Shown here: one piece after another, positions 4,611 to 64,000 of the stretch | Numbering within the stretch: the stretch's first letter is position 1 | Layout of the letters: each line of letters begins with the position of its first letter | Assembly (NCBI GenBank): GCA_964608985.1 | Contig: CAZSQU010000005.1 | Coordinates: forward strand, 7,463-71,462 | Source of the DNA: an uncultured Spirochaetales bacterium | GTDB taxonomy: Bacteria > Spirochaetota > GWE2-31-10 > CAYYKD01 | Length of the DNA stretch: 64,000 nucleotides | Reading direction: 5' to 3' | Notes under the pieces: model-generated | What the model was told of the DNA's origin: nothing | Databases searched by the model: none | Seen by the model: the letters and a program-made list of their open reading frames with translations, nothing else | Position numbers and translations under genes: made by a program

Positions 4611-4638
4611 AATACTAACCCCTTTAAATACAAAATAA

Positions 4639-4668
4639 TGATTAGGTGTCAGATACAACACCTAATCA
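4639..4668. terminator. Intergenic stem-loop (terminator or processing/stabilising hairpin)
   Basis: Perfect 11-bp inverted repeat TGATTAGGTGT-CAGATACA-ACACCTAATCA. Confidence 0.55.
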
Positions 4669-4696
4669 AAAAACAATAAATAATTATAGTAACCTG

Positions 4697-7390: not shown

Positions 7391-7414
7391 TTTCTAATCC
7401 TCCTTCTTATATAA

Positions 7415-7435
7415 CCCGCATAATGCAGGAAAATT
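7415..7435. mobile_element. Solo terminal repeat of the 172-bp MITE family
   Basis: CCCGCATaATGCAgGAAAATT matches the reverse-complemented right end of the 36609-36780 copy at 19/21. Confidence 0.5.
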
Positions 7436-7441
7436 AACCGA

Positions 7442-8599
7442 TTACCAGATAAGCTCTACCAAATCCGGTTTATCTATGAATGGATTTCTATTGTTTTGAT
7501 ACTCAAAAATCCTATCATTTCTTCTTTTCTCATAATCCGACACAGGATCATCCGAATGCCACTGTTTCAGGACACTCAGTATCCCGATAAAAGGAGCTGT
7601 ATCATTACCGACTATCTCATTAATTTCAAGATCAACAAAATCGTACCCGCCATTATTATCATAAGCTATTGCCATATAAAAAATTATTCTTGCGACATCT
7701 CCCTTATCCGCATCTCTCGGCTCCCAAGAATATGTTGCCGTTCGACAGCCGGTATCGGAAGAGTAACCGGAATAAGGCGAGCTGTCTATATATAACGAGC
7801 CGCCATCATTAAAATCGCGGTTATTTCTTGCACTGTTTACTGTTACATCACACGCTCTCAAGTTATGCGCATCTGTTCCGGGTCCGGTATCTGTTCCAAA
7901 ATCCCCATGCGATTTTGCCCAAACATGCTCTCTATTCCAACCGTCCGTATCTGTACCTGACTTGGTTTTTGGAATTGACCATCCGGTATATAACAGCAAG
8001 ACATTATCAGTATTATCAGGATCTTCATCAGCATATTTTAATATATTCCAGCATTGATCATAATCATATCGAATAAATCCGTCATTAATTATTCTATTCA
8101 GCTCATATCTAATCTCATCAACCGAGAGATCGACAATAGTTCTATAATAACCGTTAAATTGATCATTCAATGAAATATACTTCAAATAAATTGTCATTTT
8201 ATCAAAAATCGAATAATTTGACTCAATTGTTAATATTGCATCATCCTGACCTCCCGATACATTTTGATATTTAATGATAATTTCAGAAACTTCTCGCGGA
8301 TTAGTCTTAACAATTGTAAACTCATTGTTGTCAACACTGTAACATTCACTATTTACCCCGATAATAAAACTTACTTCAGAATTTGATTTATTATTGATAG
8401 TTAGAATATAACTCTCTGTATTCTCATCAAACGCAAGGTCACTGTTATTAGAAATTGCCCTGCCATTTGCACTGATATATATCAATCCCTCTTTCTTCTC
8501 CGGTTGAATTGTATAATCACCAAACCCCGCGTCAACGGGCTGATTACATGATACACAAAAAAATAGTACAATTACGATTAAAACAAAATTAATCCTCAT
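7442..8599 (-). CDS. Endonuclease I / Bsn-type extracellular nuclease lipoprotein
   Basis: WNREHVWAKSHGDFG, GTDAHNLR, VNSARNNRDF, WEPRDADKGDVAR, WHSDDPVS..EKRRN, QNNRNPFID. Lipobox CVSC. Start set to ATG 8599, overlapping the upstream stop. Confidence 0.92.
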   Translation of the reverse strand: MRINFVLIVIVLFFCVSCNQPVDAGFGDYTIQPEKKEGLIYISANGRAISNNSDLAFDENTESYILTINNKSNSEVSFIIGVNSECYSVDNNEFTIVKTNPREVSEIIIKYQNVSGGQDDAILTIESNYSIFDKMTIYLKYISLNDQFNGYYRTIVDLSVDEIRYELNRIINDGFIRYDYDQCWNILKYADEDPDNTDNVLLLYTGWSIPKTKSGTDTDGWNREHVWAKSHGDFGTDTGPGTDAHNLRACDVTVNSARNNRDFNDGGSLYIDSSPYSGYSSDTGCRTATYSWEPRDADKGDVARIIFYMAIAYDNNGGYDFVDLEINEIVGNDTAPFIGILSVLKQWHSDDPVSDYEKRRNDRIFEYQNNRNPFIDKPDLVELIW

Positions 8600-10352
8600 T
8601 ATTTTCAGTCTCAATAATAACTTCCGGCTGCTCAATTGTTAACGGCGCACTGCTATTGTCAACTGTTTGACTAATGTTAACAGGGTTAAATTTCACAACG
8701 GCAGATATCTCCCAGTTTGCAAGATTCATTATGTTTGTTGCCGTAACCATTTCATTTGTCGGATTAGCCCAATCCCATGAAATAACGGGGTTCCAAATAA
8801 CCGTCAATGTAAAATAGTCTTCTACCAATTCAAAATCAAGCTCCAGTTTAGGTGTTGCCTGTTGTAAAAAAGTTGCCGTGTTTAAAGGAATAAATGGTGC
8901 ACCGCTATTCGGATCAAAATTTATCGTATTCTGTATCGGATCAGTAGGAGACGAATAATTTGCGTTACCGGTTGTACCGTCAGTATATCTTCTGATGTTA
9001 TCCGGAATTTTTATTGAAGAATTTGCTATTCCATGATATATATTATAATCTGCTCCTAATGTTAATCTGACAACCTTAGGAAATTCGACTCTAAATTGAA
9101 CAGAAATCTCATGATCAAAAATAAAAGAATTGTAGTTAACCGTAATAAGCGGATCAGTAAAAGACTGATTAGCCCCATTTATTACATGATCCTCAGAATA
9201 TTGTGCTGTATATTGATTAAAATAAGCTGACATATTGAATATATAACCAAACTTCATCTGTACCTGACTTATAGGCCTGATCTCAATAAAAAATGGAACA
9301 TTGATATCGAGGTTAAGATCATAAGTATAATTATAAGTTGTTTTTTGTATGTTATAATCGCCTGAAACATGTCCTGCATAATCTGCATTATATTCTGTAA
9401 GTCTTTCATCAAATGACTCACTGAAATTTCTGTATCCGATCTTAAAGCCGAACCCCGGAATCAAACGAAATCTGTTAAAGCCCGTCAATGCAGGTACAAC
9501 TCTGTGTAGATCAAGTTCCATATCACTATAAATTTCATTTGCTACTCTGAAATATGTAAACTGTTCATTATTTTGCACTCTGTTTCTTATCTCGCCTGCG
9601 GTATTATTCTGAAAATAGTATTTATCCTCTAAGTAAGATACACCATTACCGTCAAAACCGGAATTCAAGATGCCGTTAGTATTAAGCACTACCACAGATT
9701 CAGATAACCCCGTACCATTTATATTGAATGAAATAATATCATAACCTTTTATACTGCTGAAAACCGGCGCCCCTATAAGTCCCTCCGTAAAACGGAAACC
9801 TATTCCTGCCTCAAGAAATCCGTATCCTGAAGAGGTATTTCCGCTTCTTTTATTTCCATTGAGTTCCCAATCAGTTATATTTAATAATCCGCCGGTATAA
9901 TTCAATTCATAATCATTCTTGGTTTCAGACAACTCATCAATATGGGTCCCTCCACCCAACATAAAATTTACTGCCGCCGAATCAGTAAGATTGTAGCCGA
10001 GATAGGCATATAATGAATTGTTTATAGCCGACCATTTATAACTATCAACTGTGTTCTTATAAATAATCTCCCCAAGATTATCATATGAAGTGTTATTGAA
10101 AGCATTGGTATAATCAAGTGTATTCATTATATTCGCTTTAATACAGAGAATAATATCATCATTAATCAAATAAGCATTACTTAAAACAAACTCAGGCGAA
10201 TAAGTTCCAACAGGACTAAATACAGTAAAATCAAATATAAAATTATCTATTATATTTACCAGATCAAGCCGATCTATTTTATCTTCCTCATCCCATCCGT
10301 AAAAGTTAATAGTCACAAACAAAATTAAAATCAGCATAATAATCTTCTTCAA
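8589..10352 (-). CDS. Hypothetical exported beta-strand-rich (putative outer-membrane) protein
   Basis: TTG start with an AAGGAG RBS and an SPI-type signal peptide. Many alternating-hydrophobic, aromatic-rich strands. No family recognised. Confidence 0.6.
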   Translation of the reverse strand: MKKIIMLILILFVTINFYGWDEEDKIDRLDLVNIIDNFIFDFTVFSPVGTYSPEFVLSNAYLINDDIILCIKANIMNTLDYTNAFNNTSYDNLGEIIYKNTVDSYKWSAINNSLYAYLGYNLTDSAAVNFMLGGGTHIDELSETKNDYELNYTGGLLNITDWELNGNKRSGNTSSGYGFLEAGIGFRFTEGLIGAPVFSSIKGYDIISFNINGTGLSESVVVLNTNGILNSGFDGNGVSYLEDKYYFQNNTAGEIRNRVQNNEQFTYFRVANEIYSDMELDLHRVVPALTGFNRFRLIPGFGFKIGYRNFSESFDERLTEYNADYAGHVSGDYNIQKTTYNYTYDLNLDINVPFFIEIRPISQVQMKFGYIFNMSAYFNQYTAQYSEDHVINGANQSFTDPLITVNYNSFIFDHEISVQFRVEFPKVVRLTLGADYNIYHGIANSSIKIPDNIRRYTDGTTGNANYSSPTDPIQNTINFDPNSGAPFIPLNTATFLQQATPKLELDFELVEDYFTLTVIWNPVISWDWANPTNEMVTATNIMNLANWEISAVVKFNPVNISQTVDNSSAPLTIEQPEVIIETENNED

Positions 10353-10377
10353 TTTCTTCTCCTTATTTTATATAAAA

Positions 10378-12564
10378 CTAAAATGTAAACCTCGCAATAA
10401 GTGGTTCATGGTCGCTAAAAGGCGAATTACTGCTTGAACTAAAATTAAATTCGCAATTAACTCTAACAACATCAAATTCAGGATTATTATTATTTAAGCC
10501 GTTAGAAATTAATATGTGATCAAGCACTTGAGAAATCCCGTTATGTATATAAGTATATCTTTCATTTATTGGTAATTTATCGATTAAACTATAAAGAATA
10601 TCCCCTTTTAATATTGTCAGCGTTTTAGAATATTGATAATCGTTATAATCCCCCAACAACACTACTTTCGCTTCTGAATCCATTGAAATTATCTTCGAAA
10701 AAAAATCATTTAAAACTGCTGCCTGACCCCACCTCTTCGTTTCTGATCCTCTGAATGGCGGCTGATATATCCCGTATTCCGGCGCATCACCTCTTTTGGA
10801 GCTTAAATGATTGATTGCAACAAAAATCTTTTCACCATTAAAAATAAATTCGGCAACCAAAGACTTCCTTGTACTAAGAAAGGAGTCACTCAAGGGTTCG
10901 ATTTGTCCAGGATTAGACGAAAGTGTTACTTCCCCGTTTTCCCTGATTACCTGCACTCCCTCATCTTCGCCCCCCCCTTCCTTTGAGACAAAATCAACCC
11001 TTTCTGAGTTATAAATAAAAGCGCATCTAATATTTGACCCCGGCTCTCCCCCGTCATAATTATATTCAGGACTCACATAACAAAAAGTGTAATTGTGACC
11101 TAAACCGGCAAACTCATTGATCTTAGAACATAGTTCTGTTAATGTTGCATCACTCGTTATTACTCCATCATCCATACTTCCGCTATCGTCCTGAATCTCA
11201 ACTAAACCAACTATATCAGGTGCTTCAAGATTATTGGCAATAATACCTGCTATTCCCCAAAATTTCTTTCGTAAATTATTGTTAACCGCCGGATCATAAC
11301 CGTAAATAGTAAAATTCTCCACATTAAAACTTGCAATCGTAAGTTTATCGGCATCACCGATTAATGTTGTTGACTCAGATGATAATACACCGGTAAATGC
11401 CGGCATCTCAGTAGCTCTAACCGTATAACTGCCCTTTGAATAATCAAGAATGCCGACAATTGAGCCTTCAGATGACATTCCGACTTTTAAAGTTGATGAT
11501 ATTGTTGCTGTCAGTTTTGAAATATTAATAACTGTCGTAACATGATCATTATAGCTCGATACAAGAGCACCACCCCGAACGGATCGATTAGTAATATGTT
11601 CTCCGTTATCAATAGCTACAAATATCTCAGAATAGCTTGTCGGACCGGTAATAACCGGCTTATCAATTTGAACCCTCATAAACTCTAAAGACTCATACAA
11701 ATCAATTGCATTATAATCCGGCTCTAAAACCCAATAATCATCATTGATCAAACCGTAATAATTATTGCCGACTATTTCATGGGGTACATTCCTACCGTTT
11801 TTACCAATAATTACGGGAGTAGGTAATTGATTGCCCGATGAAAGAATTTCTATTGAAGTAGCTCCCACACTCAGATTTGTTCTTGTGGCACTATCATAGG
11901 TTTTATAAGGCTCATCTGTAGTATAATCAACCTCTAAAACATATCCTTCCTTAATTATAATCAGATCTCCAACACTGCAATTAAAATCAATGCTTGTTAC
12001 TACTTTAACACCTTCTGAGGTTCTATTATCAAGATCATCAAACGGCGATTGTATAAACACATTTCTTATAATATCCTCATAGGTTTTAGGATCACTTGTT
12101 ATTTCGGTTCCTATAACAACACCTATTACATTGGTTACACGAAGGTTTTCATATGATGATTTATGACCTGTACCTTGTATCTCGCTGACTGAGATAACCC
12201 TTTCAGAAAAACTTCTATTGATTAATAGAAAGTCATAATCTGTTTTACTTGCAGATAGATCGATTAACGAGGTCATAGACTGCGGATAGATTACTTTACC
12301 TTCCCTATATGCCGAAATATTATAGTTGCCTTCTGCAAGATTATCTATGATATATTCTCCATTTTCGTTAGTAAAAACCCGCTTTTCGTTATCGCCGCTT
12401 AGACTTACAAGAACGCCGGAAATCGGATCTCCGCTTAAATCTGTAATAATGCCGCTTATTTGATAGACACCGCTTTCATAATTCCTTATATTTACCTTAA
12501 AAACCTGTTCCACCTGACAAGAGAATAGTATAATAATAAACAATCCAATAAACTTAATATTCAT
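10378..12564 (-). CDS. Endonuclease/exonuclease/phosphatase (EEP) family nuclease lipoprotein with Ig-like and OB-like N-terminal domains
   Basis: ISEIQG-like OB start VSEIQGTGHKS. Catalytic motifs SFNVENF, VEIQD, NHLSSK, GDYND, LDHIL, SDHEP. Lipobox ILFSC. ATG 12564 has a GGAG RBS. Confidence 0.88.
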   Translation of the reverse strand: MNIKFIGLFIIILFSCQVEQVFKVNIRNYESGVYQISGIITDLSGDPISGVLVSLSGDNEKRVFTNENGEYIIDNLAEGNYNISAYREGKVIYPQSMTSLIDLSASKTDYDFLLINRSFSERVISVSEIQGTGHKSSYENLRVTNVIGVVIGTEITSDPKTYEDIIRNVFIQSPFDDLDNRTSEGVKVVTSIDFNCSVGDLIIIKEGYVLEVDYTTDEPYKTYDSATRTNLSVGATSIEILSSGNQLPTPVIIGKNGRNVPHEIVGNNYYGLINDDYWVLEPDYNAIDLYESLEFMRVQIDKPVITGPTSYSEIFVAIDNGEHITNRSVRGGALVSSYNDHVTTVINISKLTATISSTLKVGMSSEGSIVGILDYSKGSYTVRATEMPAFTGVLSSESTTLIGDADKLTIASFNVENFTIYGYDPAVNNNLRKKFWGIAGIIANNLEAPDIVGLVEIQDDSGSMDDGVITSDATLTELCSKINEFAGLGHNYTFCYVSPEYNYDGGEPGSNIRCAFIYNSERVDFVSKEGGGEDEGVQVIRENGEVTLSSNPGQIEPLSDSFLSTRKSLVAEFIFNGEKIFVAINHLSSKRGDAPEYGIYQPPFRGSETKRWGQAAVLNDFFSKIISMDSEAKVVLLGDYNDYQYSKTLTILKGDILYSLIDKLPINERYTYIHNGISQVLDHILISNGLNNNNPEFDVVRVNCEFNFSSSSNSPFSDHEPLIARFTF

Positions 12565-12577
12565 ATTACTCTCCATG

Positions 12578-15500
12578 CTATGGATCAAAACTATGTCTGC
12601 CGAGATCAAAAAAAGCATCTTTTATAGCTTGAGACCACTCTTCATTGTTCCTGGGATCTCTGTTTCCGCTATTTGACGGGGACATAACCGTATCTTTCCT
12701 AATAAAAGTTTTATCCTTACCAAAAACCACCCCGCCACCGACACCTATCATATCTATCATTATACCATTCTTAAATAATGCGACCTGATCATTACCGCTG
12801 AACCCCAGAACTCCTGAACTCGAAGTTGAATATAATGCATCGGCAAGAGCCTGCATCCTCGGATCACAATCGGATCTGTTACTACATGCAACAAAAACAT
12901 CTCCGTGATTTAAATTGCCGCTTAAATTCTGAATTACGGTAAATAATCCTGAACCGTTCGAATCCCTTCTTAATGAATAATCTGAAAGATCAACAGTACT
13001 ACCGGTAAAATTTGCTATTTCAATCACCTTGTTATACCCACCACCCTCAATATATTCAGAAATAAAAAGATCTGTTGCTGTATATTGACTGTCTGCACGG
13101 GTCGTTTCTGTATATAAATTTATTCCTCCCGAAATCCCGCCATAAATGTATTCGGGATACAATGCAATCCGGTATTGACTATTTGGCAGTAATCCCTCAA
13201 TTACCCCCACAACATCCTCACCTGCATTTACAGCAAAAAACCCGTGAGATTCGTAAGCATAGCCATTTGCAGCTTTTCCGGATCGTACACTTTCTACCGT
13301 AAAGACATCTGTATGGGAATCGGCTGCATAAAAAACAAGTGCATCTGTGTCAAGCAGTAAATTCAGCTTAATTTTAGTTTTTTTGGACTCAAAAATCGGA
13401 TAACCGACATCCCATGTCGGAACAACCGATTCTACACCGCCTGACCTGAATTTAAATACACCGATAATAGGATCGTGATCAGTCGGTCTCATAAAAGACG
13501 AATAATCAGAGCAAGTGTGTATTATATCAAAATATTCTAATTTACTAAGCATACCGGATGAAACCAGCATATTATCAAGAATCTGTGAATTTCCTTCATA
13601 ATTATATGAATATCTGCGCTGTAATGGAACTTTATATATCAGATTAGTCAGTCCAACATCTTCAAACACCCTGAGCGCCGGAGAAAAATGAAAATCATTA
13701 AAATCGCCGAGTGATATTATATTTGCTCCGGGGTCCATATTCAAAATTTCTCGGATAAAATCAGCAACAACTCGTGATTGTTCAATTCTTGTAACTTCCG
13801 ATCCTCTCTCCGGAGGCTGATACCTGCCTTGCAAGGGATCATCTCCCCCTTTTGCCGTAAGATGATTTACTATTACAAAAACCTTTTCCCCCATAAACTC
13901 AAATTCACAAGCCAGAGATTTTCGCGTACGGTTAAATACCTCATTTAAAGGTTCAATACGCCCGGGATTAATCGAAAGTGCCGGTTTCCCGTTTCTAAAA
14001 ACCAGATCAACATTCTCTGTCGATACTCTATTCACAAATCCCGGATCAGATAAAAGCTCCTCATCATTCGGGCTGTCCACAAATCGGACCCGTTTAGTAT
14101 TGAACAATACTACATTTCTAATATTACCCCCCGGCTCTCCCCCTTCTGAATTATAGATCGGATTTATCTGTCTGTAATCATAAAAACAACTATCTGTATC
14201 AACAAAAGAATGAATTGCATCAATAAGATCATCTAAAGTATTATTACAGTCAACAACGCCGTCATCAAGATTCCCCGAATTATCCTGCACCTCAATTAAC
14301 GAAATTATATCGGGTGACCTAAGATTATAGGAAATTATCGATGCTATATCCTTTGTTTTATCATAACTGCCGTTTGGTGCAGAAGATGAAGGGTGATTCT
14401 CAACATTAAACGAGCAAACGGTCAACATTCCGTCTGATCGTGTATGACCGGAAACTTCGCGGCTAAAAATCGATCTTCTTTCAGAATAATTCTCAACGGC
14501 CAGCAATTTATATCTCTCATAGTCATAACAGATTATTCCTTTAACATTTGATTCAAATCTATCCCCCACCTTAACATGAGGACTTTGAATAAACCTGTCC
14601 GAAACGGCAATATTAAACGGATTTGCAGTTATATAATCTTCGCCAACCAAAACGCCCCCGTTTACTGTTTTTATTCCATTGTAACCGTTATCCGGGGCAA
14701 TATAAAAAGCTCCATAATCATCAACACCACCGGTAACGACAGAATCAACCACCTCTACCAGCATTCCTTCAATCGACTCAAAAAAGTCAATAGCATTCTC
14801 ATCAGGTCTTAGGAAATGCTCTATACTGCCCGCATCATTACCCTGTAAATTTGAAGGATAATAGTTCAAAGGAATTTTTCTAAAGTTCTCACCTATCTTT
14901 ACAGGATCAGGGAGCGGAAAGCCCGTTCCGATTTTTACTATTTCTGTAGTAGAAGCCCTTATTGTAGTAACAGGCAAATTCTCTGAATAGGTTGATCCCC
15001 CCGGAGTGTTTTCGATAGACTCCTCAATCACACCCGACTTAATTACCAGTAAATCACCGACAGAAAAAACATCACCTGTGACAAGATAAGAAGAATTAAG
15101 TCGAATCCCTTCTGATGTTGCAATATCATAGTCAGGAAACGGATTGGCAATATAAACTACCTGATACTCATCATTATCTACATCTGTTCCAAAATACACC
15201 GCCACAACAACACCAAAAACATTATTTACCTCAAGCCCATTATAGATTGATTGTGCTCTGTTACCTTGAATTTCTGAAATTGTCTTAAATTCACCATTAA
15301 ACCCGGTATATATCTCATCGTACTCATAACAATAAAAATCTATGTTATTAGAATCCTCATTTATTGTTATTGTGTTGTATCCACTCTGCAATAACGACAC
15401 AACTCCTTCTTTAATATGTGTCAATGTATAACTTCCGTTTGGAATGTTTTCAAAGGAAAACTCTCCTGAGCCATCCACAGTGGATTGAGCAGTTATGCGC

Positions 15501-15679
15501 CCATTTAATAAAACAGTTCCACCGATAACCGGCGTCCCGCCGGTATATAATTCAGCATTCCCGGAAATATTGAAAGTTTTATCAGATCCTTTTTTGGGTT
15601 TATATATCAAATTATCATTGCAGCCGATTAAGACAAAGAATGTTATAAGATATAAAAATAATAATTTATTTAAAGCCAT
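12578..15679 (-). CDS. EEP family extracellular nuclease lipoprotein with an Fn3-like module and C-terminal lamin-tail domain (ExeM/Xds-like architecture)
   Basis: ISEIQG, SFNVENH, IEVQD, NHLTAK, GDFND, LDNML, TDHDP. Lamin-tail motif FISEYIEG..YNKVIEIANFTG..VDLS.Y. Lipobox LIGC. Confidence 0.88.
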   Translation of the reverse strand: MALNKLLFLYLITFFVLIGCNDNLIYKPKKGSDKTFNISGNAELYTGGTPVIGGTVLLNGRITAQSTVDGSGEFSFENIPNGSYTLTHIKEGVVSLLQSGYNTITINEDSNNIDFYCYEYDEIYTGFNGEFKTISEIQGNRAQSIYNGLEVNNVFGVVVAVYFGTDVDNDEYQVVYIANPFPDYDIATSEGIRLNSSYLVTGDVFSVGDLLVIKSGVIEESIENTPGGSTYSENLPVTTIRASTTEIVKIGTGFPLPDPVKIGENFRKIPLNYYPSNLQGNDAGSIEHFLRPDENAIDFFESIEGMLVEVVDSVVTGGVDDYGAFYIAPDNGYNGIKTVNGGVLVGEDYITANPFNIAVSDRFIQSPHVKVGDRFESNVKGIICYDYERYKLLAVENYSERRSIFSREVSGHTRSDGMLTVCSFNVENHPSSSAPNGSYDKTKDIASIISYNLRSPDIISLIEVQDNSGNLDDGVVDCNNTLDDLIDAIHSFVDTDSCFYDYRQINPIYNSEGGEPGGNIRNVVLFNTKRVRFVDSPNDEELLSDPGFVNRVSTENVDLVFRNGKPALSINPGRIEPLNEVFNRTRKSLACEFEFMGEKVFVIVNHLTAKGGDDPLQGRYQPPERGSEVTRIEQSRVVADFIREILNMDPGANIISLGDFNDFHFSPALRVFEDVGLTNLIYKVPLQRRYSYNYEGNSQILDNMLVSSGMLSKLEYFDIIHTCSDYSSFMRPTDHDPIIGVFKFRSGGVESVVPTWDVGYPIFESKKTKIKLNLLLDTDALVFYAADSHTDVFTVESVRSGKAANGYAYESHGFFAVNAGEDVVGVIEGLLPNSQYRIALYPEYIYGGISGGINLYTETTRADSQYTATDLFISEYIEGGGYNKVIEIANFTGSTVDLSDYSLRRDSNGSGLFTVIQNLSGNLNHGDVFVACSNRSDCDPRMQALADALYSTSSSGVLGFSGNDQVALFKNGIMIDMIGVGGGVVFGKDKTFIRKDTVMSPSNSGNRDPRNNEEWSQAIKDAFFDLGRHSFDP

Positions 15680-15803
15680 AAGCAAACTTATAATTGATTA
15701 AAGTTAAGAAATTTTAAATAATTGGTTAATTTTAACACACGCAACTGTAAAAATAAATTTACCCCTGTTCAATGTTGACAAACTCTTATAAAATTGATTA
15801 TAT

Positions 15804-46806: not shown

Positions 46807-47037
46807 GAAACTAACTCCAAAGAGAATAAATCGGAGATATAATACATAAATTATTACTTTTTTACAAGATTTAATTTATTAATCATTTAATTATACTTGA
46901 TTATTTTAGCTTGAAGTTTTAATATATTGTATTATTAAAGATAAGTATTATTACTTTCATCCTTCAAACTAAGCTTTTGAATGCCGATAATTTAGAGATT
47001 GTATGGAAAATGTTTCTTAATAATTATGGAGTTTATT

Positions 47038-48564
47038 ATGCCGCGTAAATTTTTATTTGTTTTAACCTTTTGTTTTTTTACCGGTTTTGTATTCGGTGCT
47101 GCAGGAGATTACGATCTTTCAGTTTTTTTTACATCTAATCTTATGGGGCGAATGCAGCCGTTTACGGTTGATGAAAACCCGAATCAAGGTGGACTTCCTG
47201 CAATTGCTACAATTATCCAGCAAAGGCGTACTGACAAACCAAATAGGGTTATCGTTGTCGATACAGGCAATCAACTGGGAAGCTCATCAGACACTATTCT
47301 GTTAGAAGGCAAAGTTGAATCAACAGCAATGAACGCTGTCGGTTATAATGTCGCCGGCACTGGATACACAGATATACAAATATCACTGGAATTATTCGGC
47401 AAATACAACAATACAGTTGAACACTATATGCTTTCTGCCAATATTATTGATAAAACAGAAGAGATGCCTATCGCCGATCTATCAAATGTTTATACGGCAG
47501 GCGGGTGGAATGGTATAAAAATCGGTTTTTTTTCATTAATATCTGAAGAAGCAACACAAATGATCAGCGCCCGAACCAGATCGCAGGTAGAAATAACCGA
47601 CCCGCTTGAGGCAGCAAAAGTCGCTGTTGAACAACTTAAATCAAAAGGAGCCGTAGTAATTATCGCTCTTACCAATATTGGCGTTACAAGAACAAACGGA
47701 CTAAACGCAATGCAGTTAGCACAAGAAATCCCGGAGATAAATATAATTATCGACGGCTATGATAATGTAAAATCAGACACCCCTATAATGTCAGGAGATA
47801 CAAGAATAATTCAATCAGCAAGTTACGGGCTTTATCTTGGTGAAATAGGTTTAATGATATCACAAAACCAAATCACAGGTTTTGAACTGACACAACACCC
47901 CATTAATTACTATCGGGAGAATGCTGAACCTATTGCTCAAAATGTTACCGTTGCATCATCCATAACTCAGGCCATTAACAGAAGATCAATGGTTACAAGA
48001 AGATTTGTCGGCTGGCTTCGCAAAGGACAACTTTCAAACGAGGGTATCAGAGATGGTGAAACCCCATTAGGCAATCTGATTTGCGATGCAATGGTTGATC
48101 TTACCGGAGCCGATGTTGCTTTTCAGAATGCCGGCGGAATTGGAGTTGGTAATTTCAGAAGTGCAGCAATACTAAGAGACTCATTAAACGATCTAATAAA
48201 ATACGATAATACAATGTATATACTCGAAATGACCGGATCACAACTCATTGACACCTTGAAATTCTCAATGAAAAGAATCGGATATGGCCCGTTTCTACAG
48301 GTCGGCGGTATCAGATTCAAGTACTCACGATCAACCGAAGAGATAGCAGAACTTACAGTTGCAGGTCAGCCTGTCGATACTAATGCTATATATAAAGTTG
48401 CAGTCAATTCATGGCTAAAGCAGGGTGGTGACGGCTACGGTTTTTTACAGAATTTAACTGCGAACGAGCTTAGTTTACACCACAGAGAGGCGGTTTACAA
48501 CTATATTCAGATAAAGGGTGGAATATCAGCAGAGATCGACGGAAGAATAACGATTACGGAATAG
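47038..48564 (+). CDS. UshA-fold protein lacking the catalytic metal ligands (pseudo-5'-nucleotidase)
   Basis: SPI signal and full two-domain UshA layout (GETPLGNLICDAM, NAGG, FLQVGG, GGDGY). The motifs read FTSNLM, DTGN, GYTD, TNIG, DGYDN. ATG 47038 has a GGAG RBS. Confidence 0.85.
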   Translation: MPRKFLFVLTFCFFTGFVFGAAGDYDLSVFFTSNLMGRMQPFTVDENPNQGGLPAIATIIQQRRTDKPNRVIVVDTGNQLGSSSDTILLEGKVESTAMNAVGYNVAGTGYTDIQISLELFGKYNNTVEHYMLSANIIDKTEEMPIADLSNVYTAGGWNGIKIGFFSLISEEATQMISARTRSQVEITDPLEAAKVAVEQLKSKGAVVIIALTNIGVTRTNGLNAMQLAQEIPEINIIIDGYDNVKSDTPIMSGDTRIIQSASYGLYLGEIGLMISQNQITGFELTQHPINYYRENAEPIAQNVTVASSITQAINRRSMVTRRFVGWLRKGQLSNEGIRDGETPLGNLICDAMVDLTGADVAFQNAGGIGVGNFRSAAILRDSLNDLIKYDNTMYILEMTGSQLIDTLKFSMKRIGYGPFLQVGGIRFKYSRSTEEIAELTVAGQPVDTNAIYKVAVNSWLKQGGDGYGFLQNLTANELSLHHREAVYNYIQIKGGISAEIDGRITITE

Positions 48565-56140: not shown

Positions 56141-56174
56141 AAAAATAGGGATCTGACCAATCCCTATTTTTTTT
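56141..56174. terminator. Intrinsic terminator overlapping the DUF748 stop codon
   Basis: AAAAATAGGGA-TCTGACCAA-TCCCTATTTTT, with T tracts on both strands. Confidence 0.75.
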
Positions 56175-59100
56175 CTGCCGGCGTGACAATACAAAGATTA
56201 TGTGAAATGTTACTAAGGTTAATGTTTCTATATATATCATGATCTGTTCTTATAATAATTCTATTTTCATTTATGCTAAAAAACTCAATAATTATCTCTT
56301 TAATAAAAGCAGATCGCCTGTTTACAAATGATGCTACATCAGAATGGTCCGGCGTTATATTGTTAACAATCCTCAATCTTAATTGATTGTTATCTAATTG
56401 ACTGTAATCAAAATCCAAATTAAGGTGCCTGTATATATCGAGTAATCTGCTCCGCTCATCTGTCACTGCAACAGAATATCGGCCATATAACTCATTAAAT
56501 ACCGAGTCTTTAAGGCCGGCCATATCGATTGCCTGATCAAAATATGACTCTATTATAATCAAGGAATCCTGAGAATCAAATTCAGAAAGCACCCTCGATG
56601 AAAATATCCCGTCTGTATTTAGTAATTTATCTGAACCGGCAGGAAAAATAATCATATCATAAAAGTTTTTCTTGGTATATCCGGCATTACCCGCACTAAC
56701 CCCTGTTGTATTACTCAAAGCATTCACAAAAAGATCAAAAAACGATTTCTTATAGTCAACAGACACGCCGCCGTTAGTGCCGTTAACATCGATATCCAAC
56801 CTTATAAACCCCCTTGGGTCCCGAACATTTCGTAATAATTGATCAAGATTAATGTTCCCCGTAACCCTGACTGCTGATAAATCTTTTAGAGTTATCGCCG
56901 AGTTTACACTAAATCCGCCGTTTGAAATATCGGCAACACTTGAAATATCACAGCTACCGCCTGTAATCCTATTGCCTGTATATTTCTGAATATATCTGTT
57001 CAATTCAACGGCAATAAGATCCTTTATTTGAATATCGATTTTACTATTGCCGGGTCTTATATTACCTGACAAATTGACCGTTGAAACCCCCTCAAATACA
57101 CCATTGAGACTGATGGTGCCGTTACTGTTAACCTCTGACGGTAAATTCCTAATGTTTCCGCTGATGCGCTCAATAGTGTAAACTGCTTGAGGTACCATAG
57201 ACCGGTCTGTAATATTTATAATACCATCCGAAAAAACCACTTCGTTAACAGTTATCTTGTTGTCAATCGAGGGCAAACGGGCCTCGTTATTAAACGGCTC
57301 AAGGAAACCGCAAACAACAAATCGATTATCACTTTTGATAGAACTGTTTAATAAGGGGGTTGTAACAGTCAAATTATCAATAAAAACATCAACCGGAAAC
57401 ATATTAAGTCTTTTAACAGAAGCACTTATACCTTCTGACCGAAATACCATTTCATCATTAACCCGTAAAATCGGCTGATAGAGAGAAATATCAGTGATAA
57501 GGTTTAATTTGAGCCCGTTCATTAATGATATGCTCCCCTTTATATCTGCTTCTATAGAATTACATGTAAAATTAAATACATTTCCTCCAGTTACATTTTT
57601 TGAGCTTACATCAGTAATCACAAGCATCTGGTCTATAATGATCTCTTTCTTGATATCACTAAAGATAAACCCGAAACTATAACCATTCTGAGAAATAGGG
57701 AGTTCAAAACTTAAACCTTCGGCTGCATTATCGCCTGTACGGAAACTATCAATCATCATAGATCCGATATTGATACCGTTATTTTCAAGTGATCTTATAT
57801 CCGCTTCGATTGTCTTTATTATTGCCGGACTACTTGAGGTTTTAAACTCCAAATCATTACATCGTAATCTACCCCCAAACAGATATTCATCATCTGTTAT
57901 CGTCAGAGCACCGTCAGTCAAAGAAATGACTCCTCTGTTTATCACAGGAAAACGATCTTGTAACATAATAAATCCATCAGTATTACATCTGTCAATATTT
58001 AGACTCTTTAACTCAAGATATTTTCTGTTTTTATCATAAACCCCTTCTAACACTAACCTGTCTATATTATCAGAGCGGCAGTCAATACTGAATTTGAGCT
58101 CGCTACTATCAGGAAAGTTGAAACCTGACACGCTTGAATCCTTGATTACTATTATAGTGCTATATCCGCTAATACTATCTTTGAAGTTAAGCCATAGGTT
58201 GTTTATTGAAATGTCACTAACTCCATATCCATAGCCTGTATAAAGATTTTGCTGAGTTGCCTCTTGATATTCATAAAACAAAGTGCCGCTATTAATTATA
58301 ATATTGCCGATATTGATATCCCGCTCTTTAATATTAACAGATAAATTATCAACCCTTGCATTGAGTTCTCTTGCAAGCACACTATTCTTATTCCCGTCAA
58401 ATATACCGAGATTGGATAGCCGCAAATCACCGCTAATAATCCAGTTTGAATAATTCTTGCGTGTCTTATAGTTTATTGATAAATTACCTGATACTGTACC
58501 GGCTGTGATTCTATATCTGAAATTAAGATTAAAAAGTCTATATATATCGAGTAACCTGAATCTGCTTAGATCTACAAGGAAATTAATAGAAAAACCATCA
58601 TCATCTGCTGTTGTTCTCCCGTCTATCTCAAATGAATTTCCAAGTAATGACCCGGATATCTTTGGAGCAACTTCAAGATTGCCGCTATAAACCCCGGGGA
58701 TAGTTAGAGATAGATTATCTATAATATCGAGACCTTTATCGGAAAAAACCCTTCCGCCCGTGAGATTAATGTCTTCTACGAAAAAATTCTTTATTAAAGA
58801 ATTAAAACTTCCCGATGATACTTGAGTTTTAAAAAACTCCGGCAGTACAAAACTACCCGTCTCTGTTTCAGTAACCCTCAATGAAGGATTGGTACAACTG
58901 AACGACAAAACCCTTAACTCTCTTTTTTGAATAAGCGCAAGTATGTCAAATGAGCCATCTATACTATCAGCTGTCAGAAAAACATCGTCTTCTTTCAAAC
59001 CGAATCGGAGGTCTTTTACGGTGATGCGGGCTTTTATAAGATCAATTTTTAATTCACTATAATAAATATATCTGTCAAACCTGTCGGCAAGTATTGAAGG

Positions 59101-59205
59101 CAGATGTTTATATATATAATAAGTGCCGATTGTCAGAACTAAAGCTGTTAAAGCAATAAAAGAGATCAAAGAAATAATTATTTTTCTAATAAATGGTTTC
59201 TTCAT
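56164..59205 (-). CDS. DUF748/AsmA-like envelope-spanning protein
   Basis: Single N-terminal TM, repeated beta-taco-like segments, L.RY..KYTG..I..G, DIDVNGT, and a C-terminal IIFPAGSD OmpA-like remnant. Confidence 0.7.
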   Translation of the reverse strand: MKKPFIRKIIISLISFIALTALVLTIGTYYIYKHLPSILADRFDRYIYYSELKIDLIKARITVKDLRFGLKEDDVFLTADSIDGSFDILALIQKRELRVLSFSCTNPSLRVTETETGSFVLPEFFKTQVSSGSFNSLIKNFFVEDINLTGGRVFSDKGLDIIDNLSLTIPGVYSGNLEVAPKISGSLLGNSFEIDGRTTADDDGFSINFLVDLSRFRLLDIYRLFNLNFRYRITAGTVSGNLSINYKTRKNYSNWIISGDLRLSNLGIFDGNKNSVLARELNARVDNLSVNIKERDINIGNIIINSGTLFYEYQEATQQNLYTGYGYGVSDISINNLWLNFKDSISGYSTIIVIKDSSVSGFNFPDSSELKFSIDCRSDNIDRLVLEGVYDKNRKYLELKSLNIDRCNTDGFIMLQDRFPVINRGVISLTDGALTITDDEYLFGGRLRCNDLEFKTSSSPAIIKTIEADIRSLENNGINIGSMMIDSFRTGDNAAEGLSFELPISQNGYSFGFIFSDIKKEIIIDQMLVITDVSSKNVTGGNVFNFTCNSIEADIKGSISLMNGLKLNLITDISLYQPILRVNDEMVFRSEGISASVKRLNMFPVDVFIDNLTVTTPLLNSSIKSDNRFVVCGFLEPFNNEARLPSIDNKITVNEVVFSDGIINITDRSMVPQAVYTIERISGNIRNLPSEVNSNGTISLNGVFEGVSTVNLSGNIRPGNSKIDIQIKDLIAVELNRYIQKYTGNRITGGSCDISSVADISNGGFSVNSAITLKDLSAVRVTGNINLDQLLRNVRDPRGFIRLDIDVNGTNGGVSVDYKKSFFDLFVNALSNTTGVSAGNAGYTKKNFYDMIIFPAGSDKLLNTDGIFSSRVLSEFDSQDSLIIIESYFDQAIDMAGLKDSVFNELYGRYSVAVTDERSRLLDIYRHLNLDFDYSQLDNNQLRLRIVNNITPDHSDVASFVNRRSAFIKEIIIEFFSINENRIIIRTDHDIYRNINLSNISHNLCIVTPAEKK

Positions 59206-59240
59206 TATTAATCCAATTAAAAATTATTCAAAAATATTGA

Positions 59241-59256
59241 TTTTTGTAAGAGCCTC
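59241..59256. mobile_element. Solo terminal repeat of the 181-bp MITE family
   Basis: TTTTTGtAAGAGCCTC matches the terminal repeat at 26707-26722 at 15/16 and abuts the HD-GYP stop codon. Confidence 0.5.
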
Positions 59257-61074
59257 TTAAATTATTTTATTTTCCTGAACAGATTGAAATGATTCGTCAA
59301 ATTTTTTATTGTATTCATAGAAAATATCAACTAGAACCGGATCAAAATGGCGCGATTTCTCATGGAGAATGATATTTATTGCCTGATAATGGTCAAATGG
59401 CTTCTTATATGGACGCCTTATCCTTAACGCATCATAAACATCAGCTATTGCAAGGATTCTTGCTGAAAGCGGAATCTCAAATTCCTTTTTACCATAAGGG
59501 TAACCATGGCCGTTCCATTTCTCGTGGTGATTACCGGCAAGCGCGGCGGCTAAAACAAGAAATGTTTTGTTCTTAGACATTCTTGTAACACTGCTTAGTT
59601 TTTGGAAACCGAGATCGGTATGAGACTGCATGTAAACATACTCATCTTTTGTCAATTTATCCGGCTTCTTTAAAACATCATCAGAGATTCCAACTTTGCC
59701 CAGATCATGAAGAGATGCACTATAAATTAAGTCCCGAACATATTCTTTATCAACAATATGATAGTCTGTCGCTTCAGACAATCCGTTTGTAAGTATAAGT
59801 TTATTTAGTTCCCCTGATTCTTTTTTGTTCAACAACGCCTCAGCAAGCACCTTAGTATATATCGTTACCCTTTCCTGATGTGCGGAGGTTTCAATATCTC
59901 TGAGTCTTGATATCTGTTGGAGGGTTATCAATATCTCTTTTTGGAATTCCTGAAACTCAAAGTCGCCAATCAAAACAACCTCACTCATTTTAAAAATTGA
60001 TTTAAGGAGATTACGGACTATAAAATTAAGTGTACCGTCACTATCAAAAATGTTCTCGGTCGGATCTGTAAGTATAATAAACCCCAAACAAATACTTCTG
60101 TATTTACGACTATTGAGGTTGATCAGCTCATTATAAAGCTCTTCATTCAAACTTCTGAATTTCATCTCAATAACATCATCTGTCAAAAGCAATATATTAT
60201 TAACCATATAAGCCGACAGTATATTTGCTTCATCAACATAGCCGGCAGTTCGTATTTTTTCTAAATAACTATCAAAATCAGATATATTTGCCGCCCCAAG
60301 GGTAAATATCGGGGCTCCGTAGTATTCTACCCCCGCTTGCTTAACCCTGCAAAATTCTTCATTAATCATATCCTTCTTTAAAAGGATCTTTTCGATAACA
60401 GGTTTTAAAAATTTTTTATTATGGTTGAGTTTGTTAAAATTAAATGTAGAAAGGTTGTTGTAAATTTTCTCACAGAGATCTTTACCCATAATAGCAAGGA
60501 GTTTAGTCCAAATATCGGTAATAATGTCACTTGCCGAATTACCTTCGACAATCGCCTTCCGATAGCCAATCTTTAAATCATGAACATCTGCATTATCTAT
60601 TACATGGCCATATATCGCAGAGTATTTTACAAGCTCATCATAATTGTCATCTCGAAGATACTTTGAATACCTGTCAAATATATATTTTGACAATGTGTAT
60701 TCATCCCCGAATATTGACTCAATAAAATCATCAACCATTGTTACAACATAAATTTTACGGAAATAATTCGTCGATATGTAGTGGGTTATTAAACTGTTAA
60801 TCTTCTGGTATATCTTTGTTTTAATCTTAGTATTATTAATTATCTCACGCTCGATCTCGTTAAGGTGCTGAATCATAAACTCAGTAATCACCCTTCTTGT
60901 GTTACTCTCAACAAGTTTATCCTTTTGACTTGCGTTCTCGGTGTATAATCCAACGAGTTCTATACCGGCATCATTCAGTAATGAGTTGATTTCTTCTGGT
61001 GTTTTTCCTGAATTTTTTATTTTATTAATTGAATTCAATATATCTATAGCCACTTTGCTCTCACTATCCCCCAT
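59257..61074 (-). CDS. HD-GYP domain cyclic-dinucleotide phosphodiesterase
   Basis: RDIETSAHQERV, LHDLGKVGI, LKKPDKLT, HHEKWNGHGYP, IPLSARILAIADVYDAL...RPYK, HFDP. Confidence 0.92.
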   Translation of the reverse strand: MGDSESKVAIDILNSINKIKNSGKTPEEINSLLNDAGIELVGLYTENASQKDKLVESNTRRVITEFMIQHLNEIEREIINNTKIKTKIYQKINSLITHYISTNYFRKIYVVTMVDDFIESIFGDEYTLSKYIFDRYSKYLRDDNYDELVKYSAIYGHVIDNADVHDLKIGYRKAIVEGNSASDIITDIWTKLLAIMGKDLCEKIYNNLSTFNFNKLNHNKKFLKPVIEKILLKKDMINEEFCRVKQAGVEYYGAPIFTLGAANISDFDSYLEKIRTAGYVDEANILSAYMVNNILLLTDDVIEMKFRSLNEELYNELINLNSRKYRSICLGFIILTDPTENIFDSDGTLNFIVRNLLKSIFKMSEVVLIGDFEFQEFQKEILITLQQISRLRDIETSAHQERVTIYTKVLAEALLNKKESGELNKLILTNGLSEATDYHIVDKEYVRDLIYSASLHDLGKVGISDDVLKKPDKLTKDEYVYMQSHTDLGFQKLSSVTRMSKNKTFLVLAAALAGNHHEKWNGHGYPYGKKEFEIPLSARILAIADVYDALRIRRPYKKPFDHYQAINIILHEKSRHFDPVLVDIFYEYNKKFDESFQSVQENKII

Positions 61075-61177: not shown

Positions 61178-63319
61178 TTACTTAATACTGCCCTCTATAA
61201 AATTTAAACCGAGTCCGATGTTAATCGCAAAAGAGGGCTTTTGTTGAAGAGTATCTATATAAAAAACAAAATCAAAGTCTGTCCATAAATATTCAAATAT
61301 TTTTAACTTTAAAACACTCAAAATCTCAAAAGCAAAATTAAATCGGGAATCCTTCTGTTGAGATAAAACAGCAAGAAAATAGAAATTAAGATATGTGTTA
61401 AAAACAACTATTCCGCGGTAATCTATTGGGAGAAATGCCTGTATTTTACCGCCAATATTACCGGGTTGATCGACATTTAAAGGAAAAATATCAAAGACTA
61501 CACTCTCTCCAATAAAAAACCCAAACGGAAGATGGTGTCTGACCCCGGATTCGGGCATCAGTTTTAAAAATAATTTTGTGTCTCCATGTGTAATGTCATC
61601 TACAAAATAAAATTTTAGATTCTCTATTGCAAATCTTACATAAGGGGAACAATACCTAAAAAAATACTCGTAGGAGATACTCATCGATAATTTATCATTA
61701 TTATAATCAAAAACCACTCCGCCGTCTATAGGATCAATTTTCCACAAAAGCTCATAAAAAACCTTTAACCGGATACTTAGTAAATGATAGCTGTTTTTCC
61801 ATTCCGAATAAAGATTTGCTGATATTTTTAAAGAATGCTGAGGCACAAAACCGCTAAATTTTTTATTGGACGGATAAAACTCATAGTTATACCCGACACT
61901 ACCGTCATATCTAAAACCAAGATCCACCATATATTTCCAGTACAACGCAGGATTAATTGCAATAATATCGGCAGAATTGATCCGGTCTTCCCTTTGAATA
62001 TATTTAGTCACCTCATCTCTCAGTAAATAAACCGGAAATACAAAATCAAGACGGCGCGCTTCTATAAACTGTGTAAAACCGTCTCCTCCTTTTAAAAGAA
62101 AATCATTTACGGCAATCAGATATATCTCAGAATCAACAATATCTCTTCCGTTTATCGTCATATCCGGTCTGACACCGGAATAAAAGATTGTCTTTTCTCC
62201 AAGAGATTCACGGGCTATGCCTGCTCTAATAACCGACTTCAGCCTTGAACCGCTTATCTGAAGTGTGATAATCTCACTATCATATTTTAAAAGCTCAAAT
62301 AAGTTGTCCTCAGTTATAACCTCACTTAAAATCTGATTCTCAATCGCACCTGTGTTAATAAATGCGGCTTCAACATTGTATTTCTCCCGTATAACTTTCA
62401 ATACAAGATCAACAATCCTTATCTTTCCGTCAGTAGTTCCTATCTCTTCTGATTTTTCGGAATTATAGCGTAGATTTACATCTGAAATAATTCTTCTCAC
62501 CTGAGTTAATCTATTAACTAAACTCACGGACTGTTGATTCATATTTAAATTTATTTCAACCGGATACCTTACAATTTCTGTTCTCACGCACGGCACCCCG
62601 TCCATATCAAGTATCCCGATCTCAACCCTAAGATTCAGGTAACTATCGGGGCGCGCAATATAAAGCCCCCTGTTATCAATTGTGTTGTAACTTGCAACCG
62701 CAGAATTACCCCCCGCAAATATGTAATTGATCTCTTTTACATTTTCTAAGAGCGCGAGAGCTTTGTCAACATCAAGTCTTGCCAGACAGATTATTATTGA
62801 ACAACCGCTTTCCTTAAGAATTGACACTGTTGTTTTTGCAGATAAAATAGCCGGCTCTTCGATATGGGGTTCAGTTATACGGCCTTCAAACTCACTTACA
62901 GAAAAAACTCCGACCTTTACACCGTTATACTCAACAATCTTATAACCTTCAAATTGAATACCTTCTGCCTTAATATTTGATGAGATAAAACTAAAATAAC
63001 TTTGATCAATTAAATGTCCGAGCCTTTCTATACCATAGCCGAATTCCTGATTACCCACACAAACCCCTGAATATCCGAGCGCGTTCATAAGATCAACAGG
63101 CAACTGCCCCTCCGTATAGGCAGCGAGTTTAGAACGCCCTAAAATATTCCCGGTATCAAAGTAAAATGCGTTATAACCATTTCCATCAGCAAGACTTTGT
63201 GCATATTTGTTAATAATATCTGTTTCATTCCCAAAAGAATATCCGGTAATATTGATATTGAATACCTATGAGTGAAGGCTGGTAGTAAACAACAACAAAA
63301 TTAGTAGTAATCTGTTCAA
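61178..63319 (-). pseudogene. Catalytically degenerate UshA-fold domain fused to a predicted beta-barrel; reading frame broken by a single TAG at codon 18
   Basis: AGGAG RBS then TTG 63319 encodes MNRLLLILLLFTTSLHS*VFNINITGY...DTGNILG..., in frame with the tracked ORF from 63103. Motifs GNQEFGYG, AGGNS, KGGDGF. The C-terminal ~250 aa are amphipathic beta-strands. Confidence 0.75.
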
Positions 63320-63338
63320 ATCCGGCTCCTTTTATGCT

Positions 63339-64000
63339 TTAAAACCGTTCGATCTTGTAACCGACACCCAACTCAAACTCATTAACCGGCTGACCGTCTT
63401 GAATACCTGATGACCAGAAATTCAAGGAATGCTTAAATGACACCTCAAATCCGTTTCGGCTGAACTTCAATGTATTTATAAACTTATGAGCTGTATGATA
63501 TGAAGATTCATTTGCGTAAGTATAATATTCAAAGCCGTAACCGGTTTCAAGCTGCAAACCTTTAAAACCGTCCCAATAGATCATTAGTGCCAGCCTGTTA
63601 TAAGTATATTGATTTTTTAAATCGTTTTCTAAAGGATTACCCGTAAGAATGAAACTAAATGTATTTCTGCAAATCAGTCCTACCCGGATACGATTGTCTA
63701 TGAAGTTCATAAAGCCGAATTTTAATAAGAATTGATTCCTGATCCGCAAACCCGGCATCGGACCGGCAGGTGTCACACTTCTTAATATTGAAACAAGATT
63801 CATATCGATCACAAAAAGATATATCGGGAAAAGGGGCAATACAATTGTTTGGCTTGTGTAACCCCCGATCATCGCAGTAAAATCCTCATTAGCAAACCGG
63901 TTGTTGTTAAAAACAGCCGCAGGACCGAAATCTATAAACAAAAAAAACGCAGGTTTATTTATAACAGGAATATATGGAGTAAACACAAATGATATTCCGC
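63339..64000 (-). CDS. C-terminal part of a predicted outer-membrane beta-barrel protein (runs off the window end)
   Basis: The frame is open to 64000. Amphipathic strands end in FELGVGYKIERF, a beta-signal-like C-terminal Phe motif. Confidence 0.65.
   Translation of the reverse strand, partial: GISFVFTPYIPVINKPAFFLFIDFGPAAVFNNNRFANEDFTAMIGGYTSQTIVLPLFPIYLFVIDMNLVSILRSVTPAGPMPGLRIRNQFLLKFGFMNFIDNRIRVGLICRNTFSFILTGNPLENDLKNQYTYNRLALMIYWDGFKGLQLETGYGFEYYTYANESSYHTAHKFINTLKFSRNGFEVSFKHSLNFWSSGIQDGQPVNEFELGVGYKIERF

Follow-up and report, generated by a model that had tools for sequence, protein, structure and literature searches.

A degenerate 5′-nucleotidase module joined to a predicted outer-membrane β-barrel in an uncultured Spirochaetales bacterium

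The fused protein and the closest described systems

Proteins of the UshA/5′-nucleotidase family, among them UshA and c4898 (3IVD) of E. coli, the Thermus thermophilus protein 2Z1A, human CD73, NadN and SoxB, share a two-domain clamshell. The same clamshell is encoded on the minus strand at positions 61178-63319 of a 64,000-nucleotide stretch of DNA from an uncultured Spirochaetales bacterium (contig CAZSQU010000005.1; this stretch is hereafter the window, and all coordinates are window positions unless another locus is named), where it is continued by a 255-residue barrel-like tail that is present on no characterised member of the family. The fused protein keeps the NDFxxxGGDGF loop and the paired base-stacking aromatic positions of its relatives, but differs from them at six of seven metal ligands, in the loss of the GGIR arginine and, in the copy in the window, in the loss of the His-Asp dyad. 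Judged from the sequences, this is a real, very rare and undescribed combination of domains, and what can be said of its function is inference. A search of the literature located no paper on an outer-membrane protein with a 5′-nucleotidase-fold module or on a fusion of this kind and, to our knowledge, pseudoenzymes built on the 5′-nucleotidase fold have barely been described.

Several known envelope proteins resemble the fused protein in architecture. The β-domains of type Va autotransporters, as in EspP, Hbp, BrkA, NalP and AIDA-I, are likewise C-terminal, have ~250-300 residues and ~12 strands, and follow a secreted N-terminal domain. In contrast to these, the fused protein has no pore helix, no PF03797 match and no terminal aromatic residue, and a globular α/β clamshell without a spacer takes the place of the passenger. 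In BamA and TamA, with their POTRA-barrel arrangement, and in the Tpr/MOSP proteins of Treponema, which are also from spirochaetes, a periplasmic N-terminal part is followed by a C-terminal barrel, a topology like that proposed below. The fused protein has no sequence or domain relation to either group, would have ~12 strands where Omp85 barrels have 16, and carries a dead enzyme as its periplasmic part. The nucleoside-specific channel Tsx is an aromatic-rich, 12-strand barrel of similar size, and a nucleoside theme may be common to both, but no sequence similarity to Tsx was detected (Channel_Tsx gave no score at E up to 10) and Tsx is without a tethered binding domain. A fusion encoded in a second genome of the same order (designated G018) likewise joins a 5′-nucleotidase fold to a β-rich outer-membrane-type protein, at a terminus expected to be periplasmic. 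Its domain order is, however, opposite, its barrel belongs to an unrelated family (hhalign probability 0.1) and, unlike the fused protein described here, its nucleotidase retains NDTHG, DAGD, GNHEF, THMG, GHTH and GGGIR.

A degenerate clamshell and a predicted 12-strand barrel

The gene is a single frame of 713 codons with one internal TAG, at codon 18, and the product is organised, with good support, as a signal peptide, both UshA/5′-nucleotidase domains and the C-terminal β domain (Table 1). The signal peptide and the two UshA domains had been noted in an initial annotation made from the sequence alone, and both stand, the former as judged by eye and the latter from Pfam, NCBIfam, PDB and Foldseek comparisons. 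A hydrophobic N-terminus equivalent to MNRLLLILLLFTTSLHS is present in all three orthologs that were found, and a ribosome-binding site lies within the 19-nucleotide gap that separates the stop codon of the upstream gene from the TTG start.

The C-domain matches Pfam 5_nucleotid_C (PF02872; E 1.3e-15, residues 300-418), the sole Pfam family above threshold in the fused protein, and there is no match to Pfam Metallophos. The N-domain matches NCBIfam models that include UshA, SoxB, NadN, CpdB and UshA_like_PCGU, all with scores far below their cut-offs (64.9 bits against 1646 for the best, 45.6 against 600 for UshA), and its sequence also matches 3IVD, 2Z1A and CD73 in the PDB. Consistent with this, a Foldseek search with a low-confidence model of the full-length protein returned CD73 (E 3e-15), 2Z1A, NadN and SoxB.

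Alignment with active relatives confirmed each of the motif changes listed in the initial annotation (no DxH, DTGN, GNQEF, ARLD and GGNS). The canonical NDxHG of motif I is replaced by NINITGYSFG, DAGD of motif II by DTGN, GNHEFD of motif III by GNQEFG, which lacks the catalytic His as well as the Asp paired with it, LSHLG of motif IV by LARLD, and GGHSH of motif V by GGNSA; the Asn of motif III is the only metal ligand that remains. No member of the family of four retains motif I, IV or V. The three orthologs retain NHEFD or HHEFD, so the loss of the dyad is private to the window's copy, and the reported loss of the catalytic His thus holds for this copy but not as a trait of the family. The losses common to the family nevertheless support the view that a dimetal centre could not form and that the module is, as had been proposed, a non-catalytic 5′-nucleotidase clamshell.

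The substrate pocket appears to have been affected unevenly. The phosphate-binding Arg of GGIR is a Glu in the window's copy, and Glu, Ser, Ser or Asp across the four members. Y346, F407 and G411-G412-D413-G414 are invariant in all four, with a Pro-Phe to Lys-Tyr change at the Y346 position. From structures of UshA and CD73, Y346 and F407 presumably occupy the two base-stacking positions and D413 that of the ribose-binding Asp. The pocket thus seems to retain the part that would hold a nucleoside but has lost its phosphate and metal part and, because the phosphate-binding Arg is lost, a nucleotide seems a less likely ligand than a nucleoside.

Phe, Tyr and Trp account for 21% of the C-terminal tail, and its mean period-2 hydrophobic moment is 1.27, as compared to 0.79 and 0.85 in the two soluble domains. 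In agreement with the ~250 residues of amphipathic β-strands claimed originally, an alignment of the four sequences resolves 12 amphipathic strands, each 11 to 22 residues long (S1-S6, residues 459-474, 495-508, 511-528, 535-556, 560-574 and 584-597; S7-S12, residues 601-614, 623-634, 637-652, 660-676, 680-690 and 697-710). The connections S2-S3, S4-S5, S6-S7, S8-S9 and S10-S11 have only 2-3 residues and are free of gaps in all four sequences, whereas the other six have 6-20 residues and every one of them contains insertions or deletions. Hydrophobic and polar faces alternate in most strands, and 11 invariant charged residues fall on the polar faces, which are predicted to line the lumen. This pattern is the one usual for outer-membrane proteins, in which the turns on the periplasmic side are tight, the loops on the outside vary and the barrel has its two termini in the periplasm.

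When the tail alone was modelled with AlphaFold2 (AF2), 11 long strands were obtained at a mean predicted local distance difference test (pLDDT) value of 51.6; the full-length model reached 46.6. Among its best 50 hits, Foldseek matched the tail model to nothing but outer-membrane barrels; the top-ranked ones are 12-strand autotransporter β-domains, from EspP, Hbp and BrkA and also from AIDA-I and NalP, and the TM-scores are 0.23-0.34. The structural check that had been suggested for the tail thus recovered barrels as the nearest folds, at low model confidence and with low TM-scores. The alternation of turns and loops, the dyad hydrophobicity and the aromatic content bear out the proposed covalent fusion of the clamshell with a domain that shows the hallmarks of an outer-membrane β-barrel. 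Taken with the models, they make it likely that the tail is such a barrel, one that presumably inserts into the membrane and that is predicted to represent a new, previously unclassified sequence family of small barrels with ~12 strands.

Table 1. Features of the fused gene and its immediate surroundings.
Feature	Window position	Strand	Basis
Upstream co-oriented gene, 3′ part (347 residues in the full contig)	63339..64000	-	Sequence
Ribosome-binding site AAGGAG, 6 nucleotides before the TTG start	63326..63331	-	Read from the sequence
Predicted Sec signal peptide MNRLLLILLLFTTSLHS, codons 1-17	63269..63319	-	Translation, judged by eye
In-frame TAG, codon 18, in the predicted signal-peptide cleavage region	63266..63268	-	Sequence
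Metallophosphoesterase-like N-domain, residues ~19-255	62555..63265	-	NCBIfam and PDB sequence matches, alignments, Foldseek
5′-nucleotidase C-terminal (substrate-binding) domain, residues ~296-457	61949..62434	-	PF02872, 3IVD alignment
New all-β domain, predicted 12-strand outer-membrane barrel, residues 459-713	61181..61945	-	Alignment pattern, AF2, Foldseek
TAA stop codon of the fused gene	61178..61180	-	Sequence

Distribution of the family and the TAG at codon 18

An exhaustive HMMER profile search of 1.84 billion representative proteins with the tail recovered four proteins, all with E below 1e-48: the window's protein, two from metagenome-assembled genomes of the same order and one from a Joint Genome Institute metagenome. 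The members have 636-719 residues and carry the tail C-terminally in every case, and the full-length orthologs, at 35-40% identity, are free of internal stops; one of them is the 688/695-residue protein of Spirochaetes bacterium GWB1_27_13. Proteins that share the fusion, which the initial annotation had proposed to look for, thus exist as three orthologs that are themselves degenerate in motifs I, IV and V and not intact enzymes. The family emerged only from this search and from searches of whole genomes; word-indexed searches with the full protein, with the tail of one ortholog (P0011) and with the four-sequence profile returned only the query and ordinary nucleotidases. The fused gene is present in 3 of 20 genomes of the order, each from a different family, and these are also the only carriers among 401 Spirochaetota genomes, as the phylum-wide search added no member. 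It is absent from a genome of the same genus (G001), whose counterparts of the HD-GYP neighbour (80% identical) and of the 347-residue upstream protein (58% identical) are encoded on different contigs. A tree built from the nucleotidase modules puts the fused clade at the end of a long branch and does not settle how it relates to the stand-alone dead paralogs; common descent is not claimed from the shared Pro-Phe to Lys-Tyr change.

The initial annotation had the TAG at codon 18 read as Gln, which was not borne out. TAG is an ordinary stop in this genome, where it terminates 16 of the 42 long open reading frames (ORFs) of the window and, genome-wide, 346 of 1479 long frames, and none of the 36 tRNAs found, an incomplete set, has the anticodon CUA; recoding as Gln or as pyrrolysine was rejected on both grounds. 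Translation from the first start downstream of the TAG would give a 641-residue product without a signal peptide and, as assembled, the window's copy is predicted to make only a 17-residue peptide or this signal-less fragment. The break in this copy and the lack of the gene in the same-genus genome mark it as dispensable. The window's copy is most likely a very recently inactivated, nonsense allele.

The TAG might instead reflect an error of consensus or assembly, be a minority allele that the assembler fixed or be a codon that is usefully read through, with the full 713-residue protein made, which we regard as a real if rather unlikely prospect. In its favour are an intact ribosome-binding site, start codon and signal peptide, 695 intact downstream codons, and a Gln codon (CAA, CAG) at the aligned position in two of the three orthologs, the fourth member not being aligned to Gln. 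The window's copy is, moreover, not enriched in private changes at sites that are otherwise conserved (41, as compared to 44, 35 and 45 in the other members), and relaxed selection in this copy was rejected on this ground. The frequency of TAG as a genuine stop and the lack of a recognisable suppressor tRNA argue against such an escape, as does the absence of the gene from the same-genus genome, which fits ongoing loss. The same TAG is, in addition, present in a second assembly (ENA ERZ27262927 k141_166913), although this is 100% identical over 5833 bp and so does not sample an independent population.

Topology, proposed function and genomic setting

The junction between the two parts of the protein bears on which side of the membrane the clamshell faces. 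In alignments, the C-terminus of the nucleotidase fold, which ends as ...IDGRITITE-stop in a stand-alone paralog in the window, corresponds to ...IIAINPA, located directly before the LYWKY of barrel strand 1. Strand 1 begins within 2 residues of the last nucleotidase strand, with no linker helix between them, and the sole helix nearby (residues 430-443) is, in the AF2 models, the last helix of the nucleotidase C-domain. Because strand 1 follows the nucleotidase directly there is no room for a pore-spanning helix, and the clamshell is most likely periplasmic, unlike the passenger of an autotransporter, which is displayed at the surface. Since strand 1 carries the module at its N-terminus, the module would lie on the side of the tight turns, that is, in the periplasm. 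The fusion of opposite order in G018 also places its nucleotidase at a barrel terminus that is expected to be periplasmic.

The reading we favour, with a probability of roughly 0.45, is that of an envelope protein in which a dead clamshell serves as a periplasmic binder of a nucleoside-like ligand at a small channel. A Sec signal peptide would export a catalytically dead, two-domain UshA-type clamshell followed directly by an outer-membrane barrel of ~12 strands, with the clamshell suspended at the periplasmic edge of the barrel in the manner of POTRA in BamA. With Y346, F407 and D413 invariant and the phosphate-binding Arg lost, the module would bind its ligand without hydrolysis and, positioned at the inner mouth of a channel of Tsx-like size with a charged lumen, might capture, sense or gate what passes through the barrel. 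Ligand, channel and gating are all inferred from sequence.

A number of observations weigh against this proposal. Both AF2 models are of low confidence, with pLDDT mostly <60 over the tail, the TM-scores of the fold matches are low, and the alignment of the tail rests on four sequences only. Neither Pfam, searched up to E = 10, nor the sequences of the PDB yielded a match to the tail. Classical outer-membrane proteins end in an aromatic residue, and none of the four proteins does so (...GLNFIEGSIK, ...VSFLNGTINM, ...LSFFIGTIKK and ...ISIFYGRTSR); in the window's copy a Phe is located 7 residues from the end. The conservation of NDFLLxGGDGF may be structural and not ligand-related. The gene neighbours differ in all four loci, so that genomic context gives no clue to a pathway through a conserved partner or operon, and the gene is broken in one genome and missing from its closest relative, as described above.

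The clamshell could, alternatively, bind no small ligand and be a periplasmic module for contact with other proteins or with the cell wall, on a barrel that is a mere anchor. Such a scaffold would account for the complete loss of the metal site and of the phosphate-binding Arg and for the lack of nucleotide-related genes at three of the four loci, and the stand-alone dead paralogs that are common in the order indicate that non-enzymatic roles of the fold are locally established. The invariance of the base-stacking aromatics and of the ribose Asp is, however, not what a scaffold would lead one to expect, and 11 invariant charged residues on the lumen face exceed the needs of a passive anchor. 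For two orthologs, moreover, the barrel is conserved at least as well as the soluble part (45-47% against 33-34% identity), and we consider the scaffold unlikely.

That the tail is not a membrane barrel but a soluble β-rich domain, such as a sandwich, solenoid or carrier, in a periplasmic or secreted protein, is less probable still. The low pLDDT, the lack of a match to any outer-membrane-protein family and the missing terminal aromatic would all be accommodated, but a soluble domain would not explain why invariant tight turns and indel-bearing loops alternate so strictly between the 12 strands or why dyad hydrophobicity and aromatic residues are as prominent as in transmembrane barrels, nor would it explain the exclusively outer-membrane character of the 50 best fold matches. 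Display in the manner of a type V autotransporter, in which the 12-strand barrel would export the dead nucleotidase so that it binds nucleosides or fragments of nucleic acid at the surface, as a receptor or an adhesin, fits the order of signal peptide, passenger and ~255-residue C-terminal barrel and the identity of the leading Foldseek matches but is the least probable of these alternatives, as the pore-spanning α-helical linker that defines autotransporters is absent, the only helix at the N-terminus of the model belongs to the nucleotidase domain, no PF03797 match was obtained for any of the four tails even at E = 10, the C-terminal residue is not aromatic and the TM-scores are low.

If the favoured reading of a periplasmic nucleoside-like binder at a small channel is extended, the protein could be a new outer-membrane uptake device, a nucleoside-selective channel with a tethered, non-hydrolytic binder derived from a 5′-nucleotidase at its periplasmic exit, acting as a ratchet or as a ligand-operated gate. 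We offer this as a speculative extension that is, on balance, unlikely. Together with the G018 fusion, such an uptake device would point to a recurrent, unrecognised way of linking passage across the outer membrane to the capture, in the periplasm, of products of nucleic-acid breakdown. Should the module, as in the favoured reading, bind nucleosides at the mouth of its own barrel, passive diffusion across the outer membrane would be given a direction by simple means and independently of TonB. The new small-barrel family is, in addition, relevant to the biology of the spirochaete outer membrane, for which few proteins are known. Its importance is limited by the four members known, by the dispensability of a gene that is interrupted here and by the lack of a conserved context to guide functional work.

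Degenerate and intact 5′-nucleotidase folds are also encoded elsewhere in the window. The stand-alone paralog, of 521 residues (46999-48564, plus strand), passes the PF02872 threshold and is degenerate in all five motifs (FFTSNLMG, DTGN, GYTDI, LTNIG and DGYDN), with a Gly in place of the GGIR Arg; relatives of ~515 residues with the same losses are present in many genomes of the order. A co-oriented block on the minus strand (2892-15685) encodes two EEP-type nucleases, one of them with a lamin-tail domain, an Endonuclease I protein, an unannotated 587-residue β-rich protein (8589-10352), an 897-residue Fn3-containing protein and an intact 5′-nucleotidase (Metallophos and 5_nucleotid_C), and looks like an extracellular nucleic-acid scavenging locus. 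The suggestion that the fused protein complements this nuclease locus was not supported, as the window's genome is the only one that has both the fused gene and the nuclease-operon barrel and the neighbours of the fused gene are unconserved. The G018 fusion (L040, G018:C191, plus strand) is a barrel-first frame of >843 residues, cut at both contig ends, in which a homolog of the nuclease-operon protein 8589-10352 is joined to a 5′-nucleotidase with all catalytic motifs. The tail described here is related neither to that nuclease-operon protein nor to the upstream 347-residue protein (hhalign probability <=0.2), and the 5′-nucleotidase fold has thus, by sequence comparison, been joined to outer-membrane-type barrels at least twice in the order, with unrelated barrels.

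The 347-residue protein encoded upstream (in full at L001 3659-4702, minus strand) has a signal peptide and the classical outer-membrane-protein ending ...GVGYKIERF, and is possibly an outer-membrane protein; it has no Pfam or NCBIfam match. Its ortholog in the same-genus genome lies at an unrelated locus, on a contig without the fusion gene, and the gene is not conserved beside orthologs of the fused gene; the upstream proteins of the window and P0011 loci are unrelated. At the JBJKSS010000001 locus the 3′ end of the fusion overlaps by 41 nucleotides (L015 3464-3504) an ORF on the same strand for a 434-residue solute-binding-protein-like product, as taken from the first ATG, which gives the longest frame; the real start may be further downstream. 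The metagenomic contig of the fourth member has a homolog of the type VI secretion protein Hcp next downstream (L020 10222-10734, plus strand) and a gene for a 506-residue TPR-like protein upstream, neither of which is found beside other family members. In the window, the fused gene is followed on the same strand (56164-61074) by genes for an HD-GYP protein (605 residues) and then a DUF748 protein (1013 residues). A co-oriented open frame also follows the HD-GYP gene in the same-genus genome, and synteny between the two genomes breaks exactly upstream of HD-GYP, at the position of the fusion gene.

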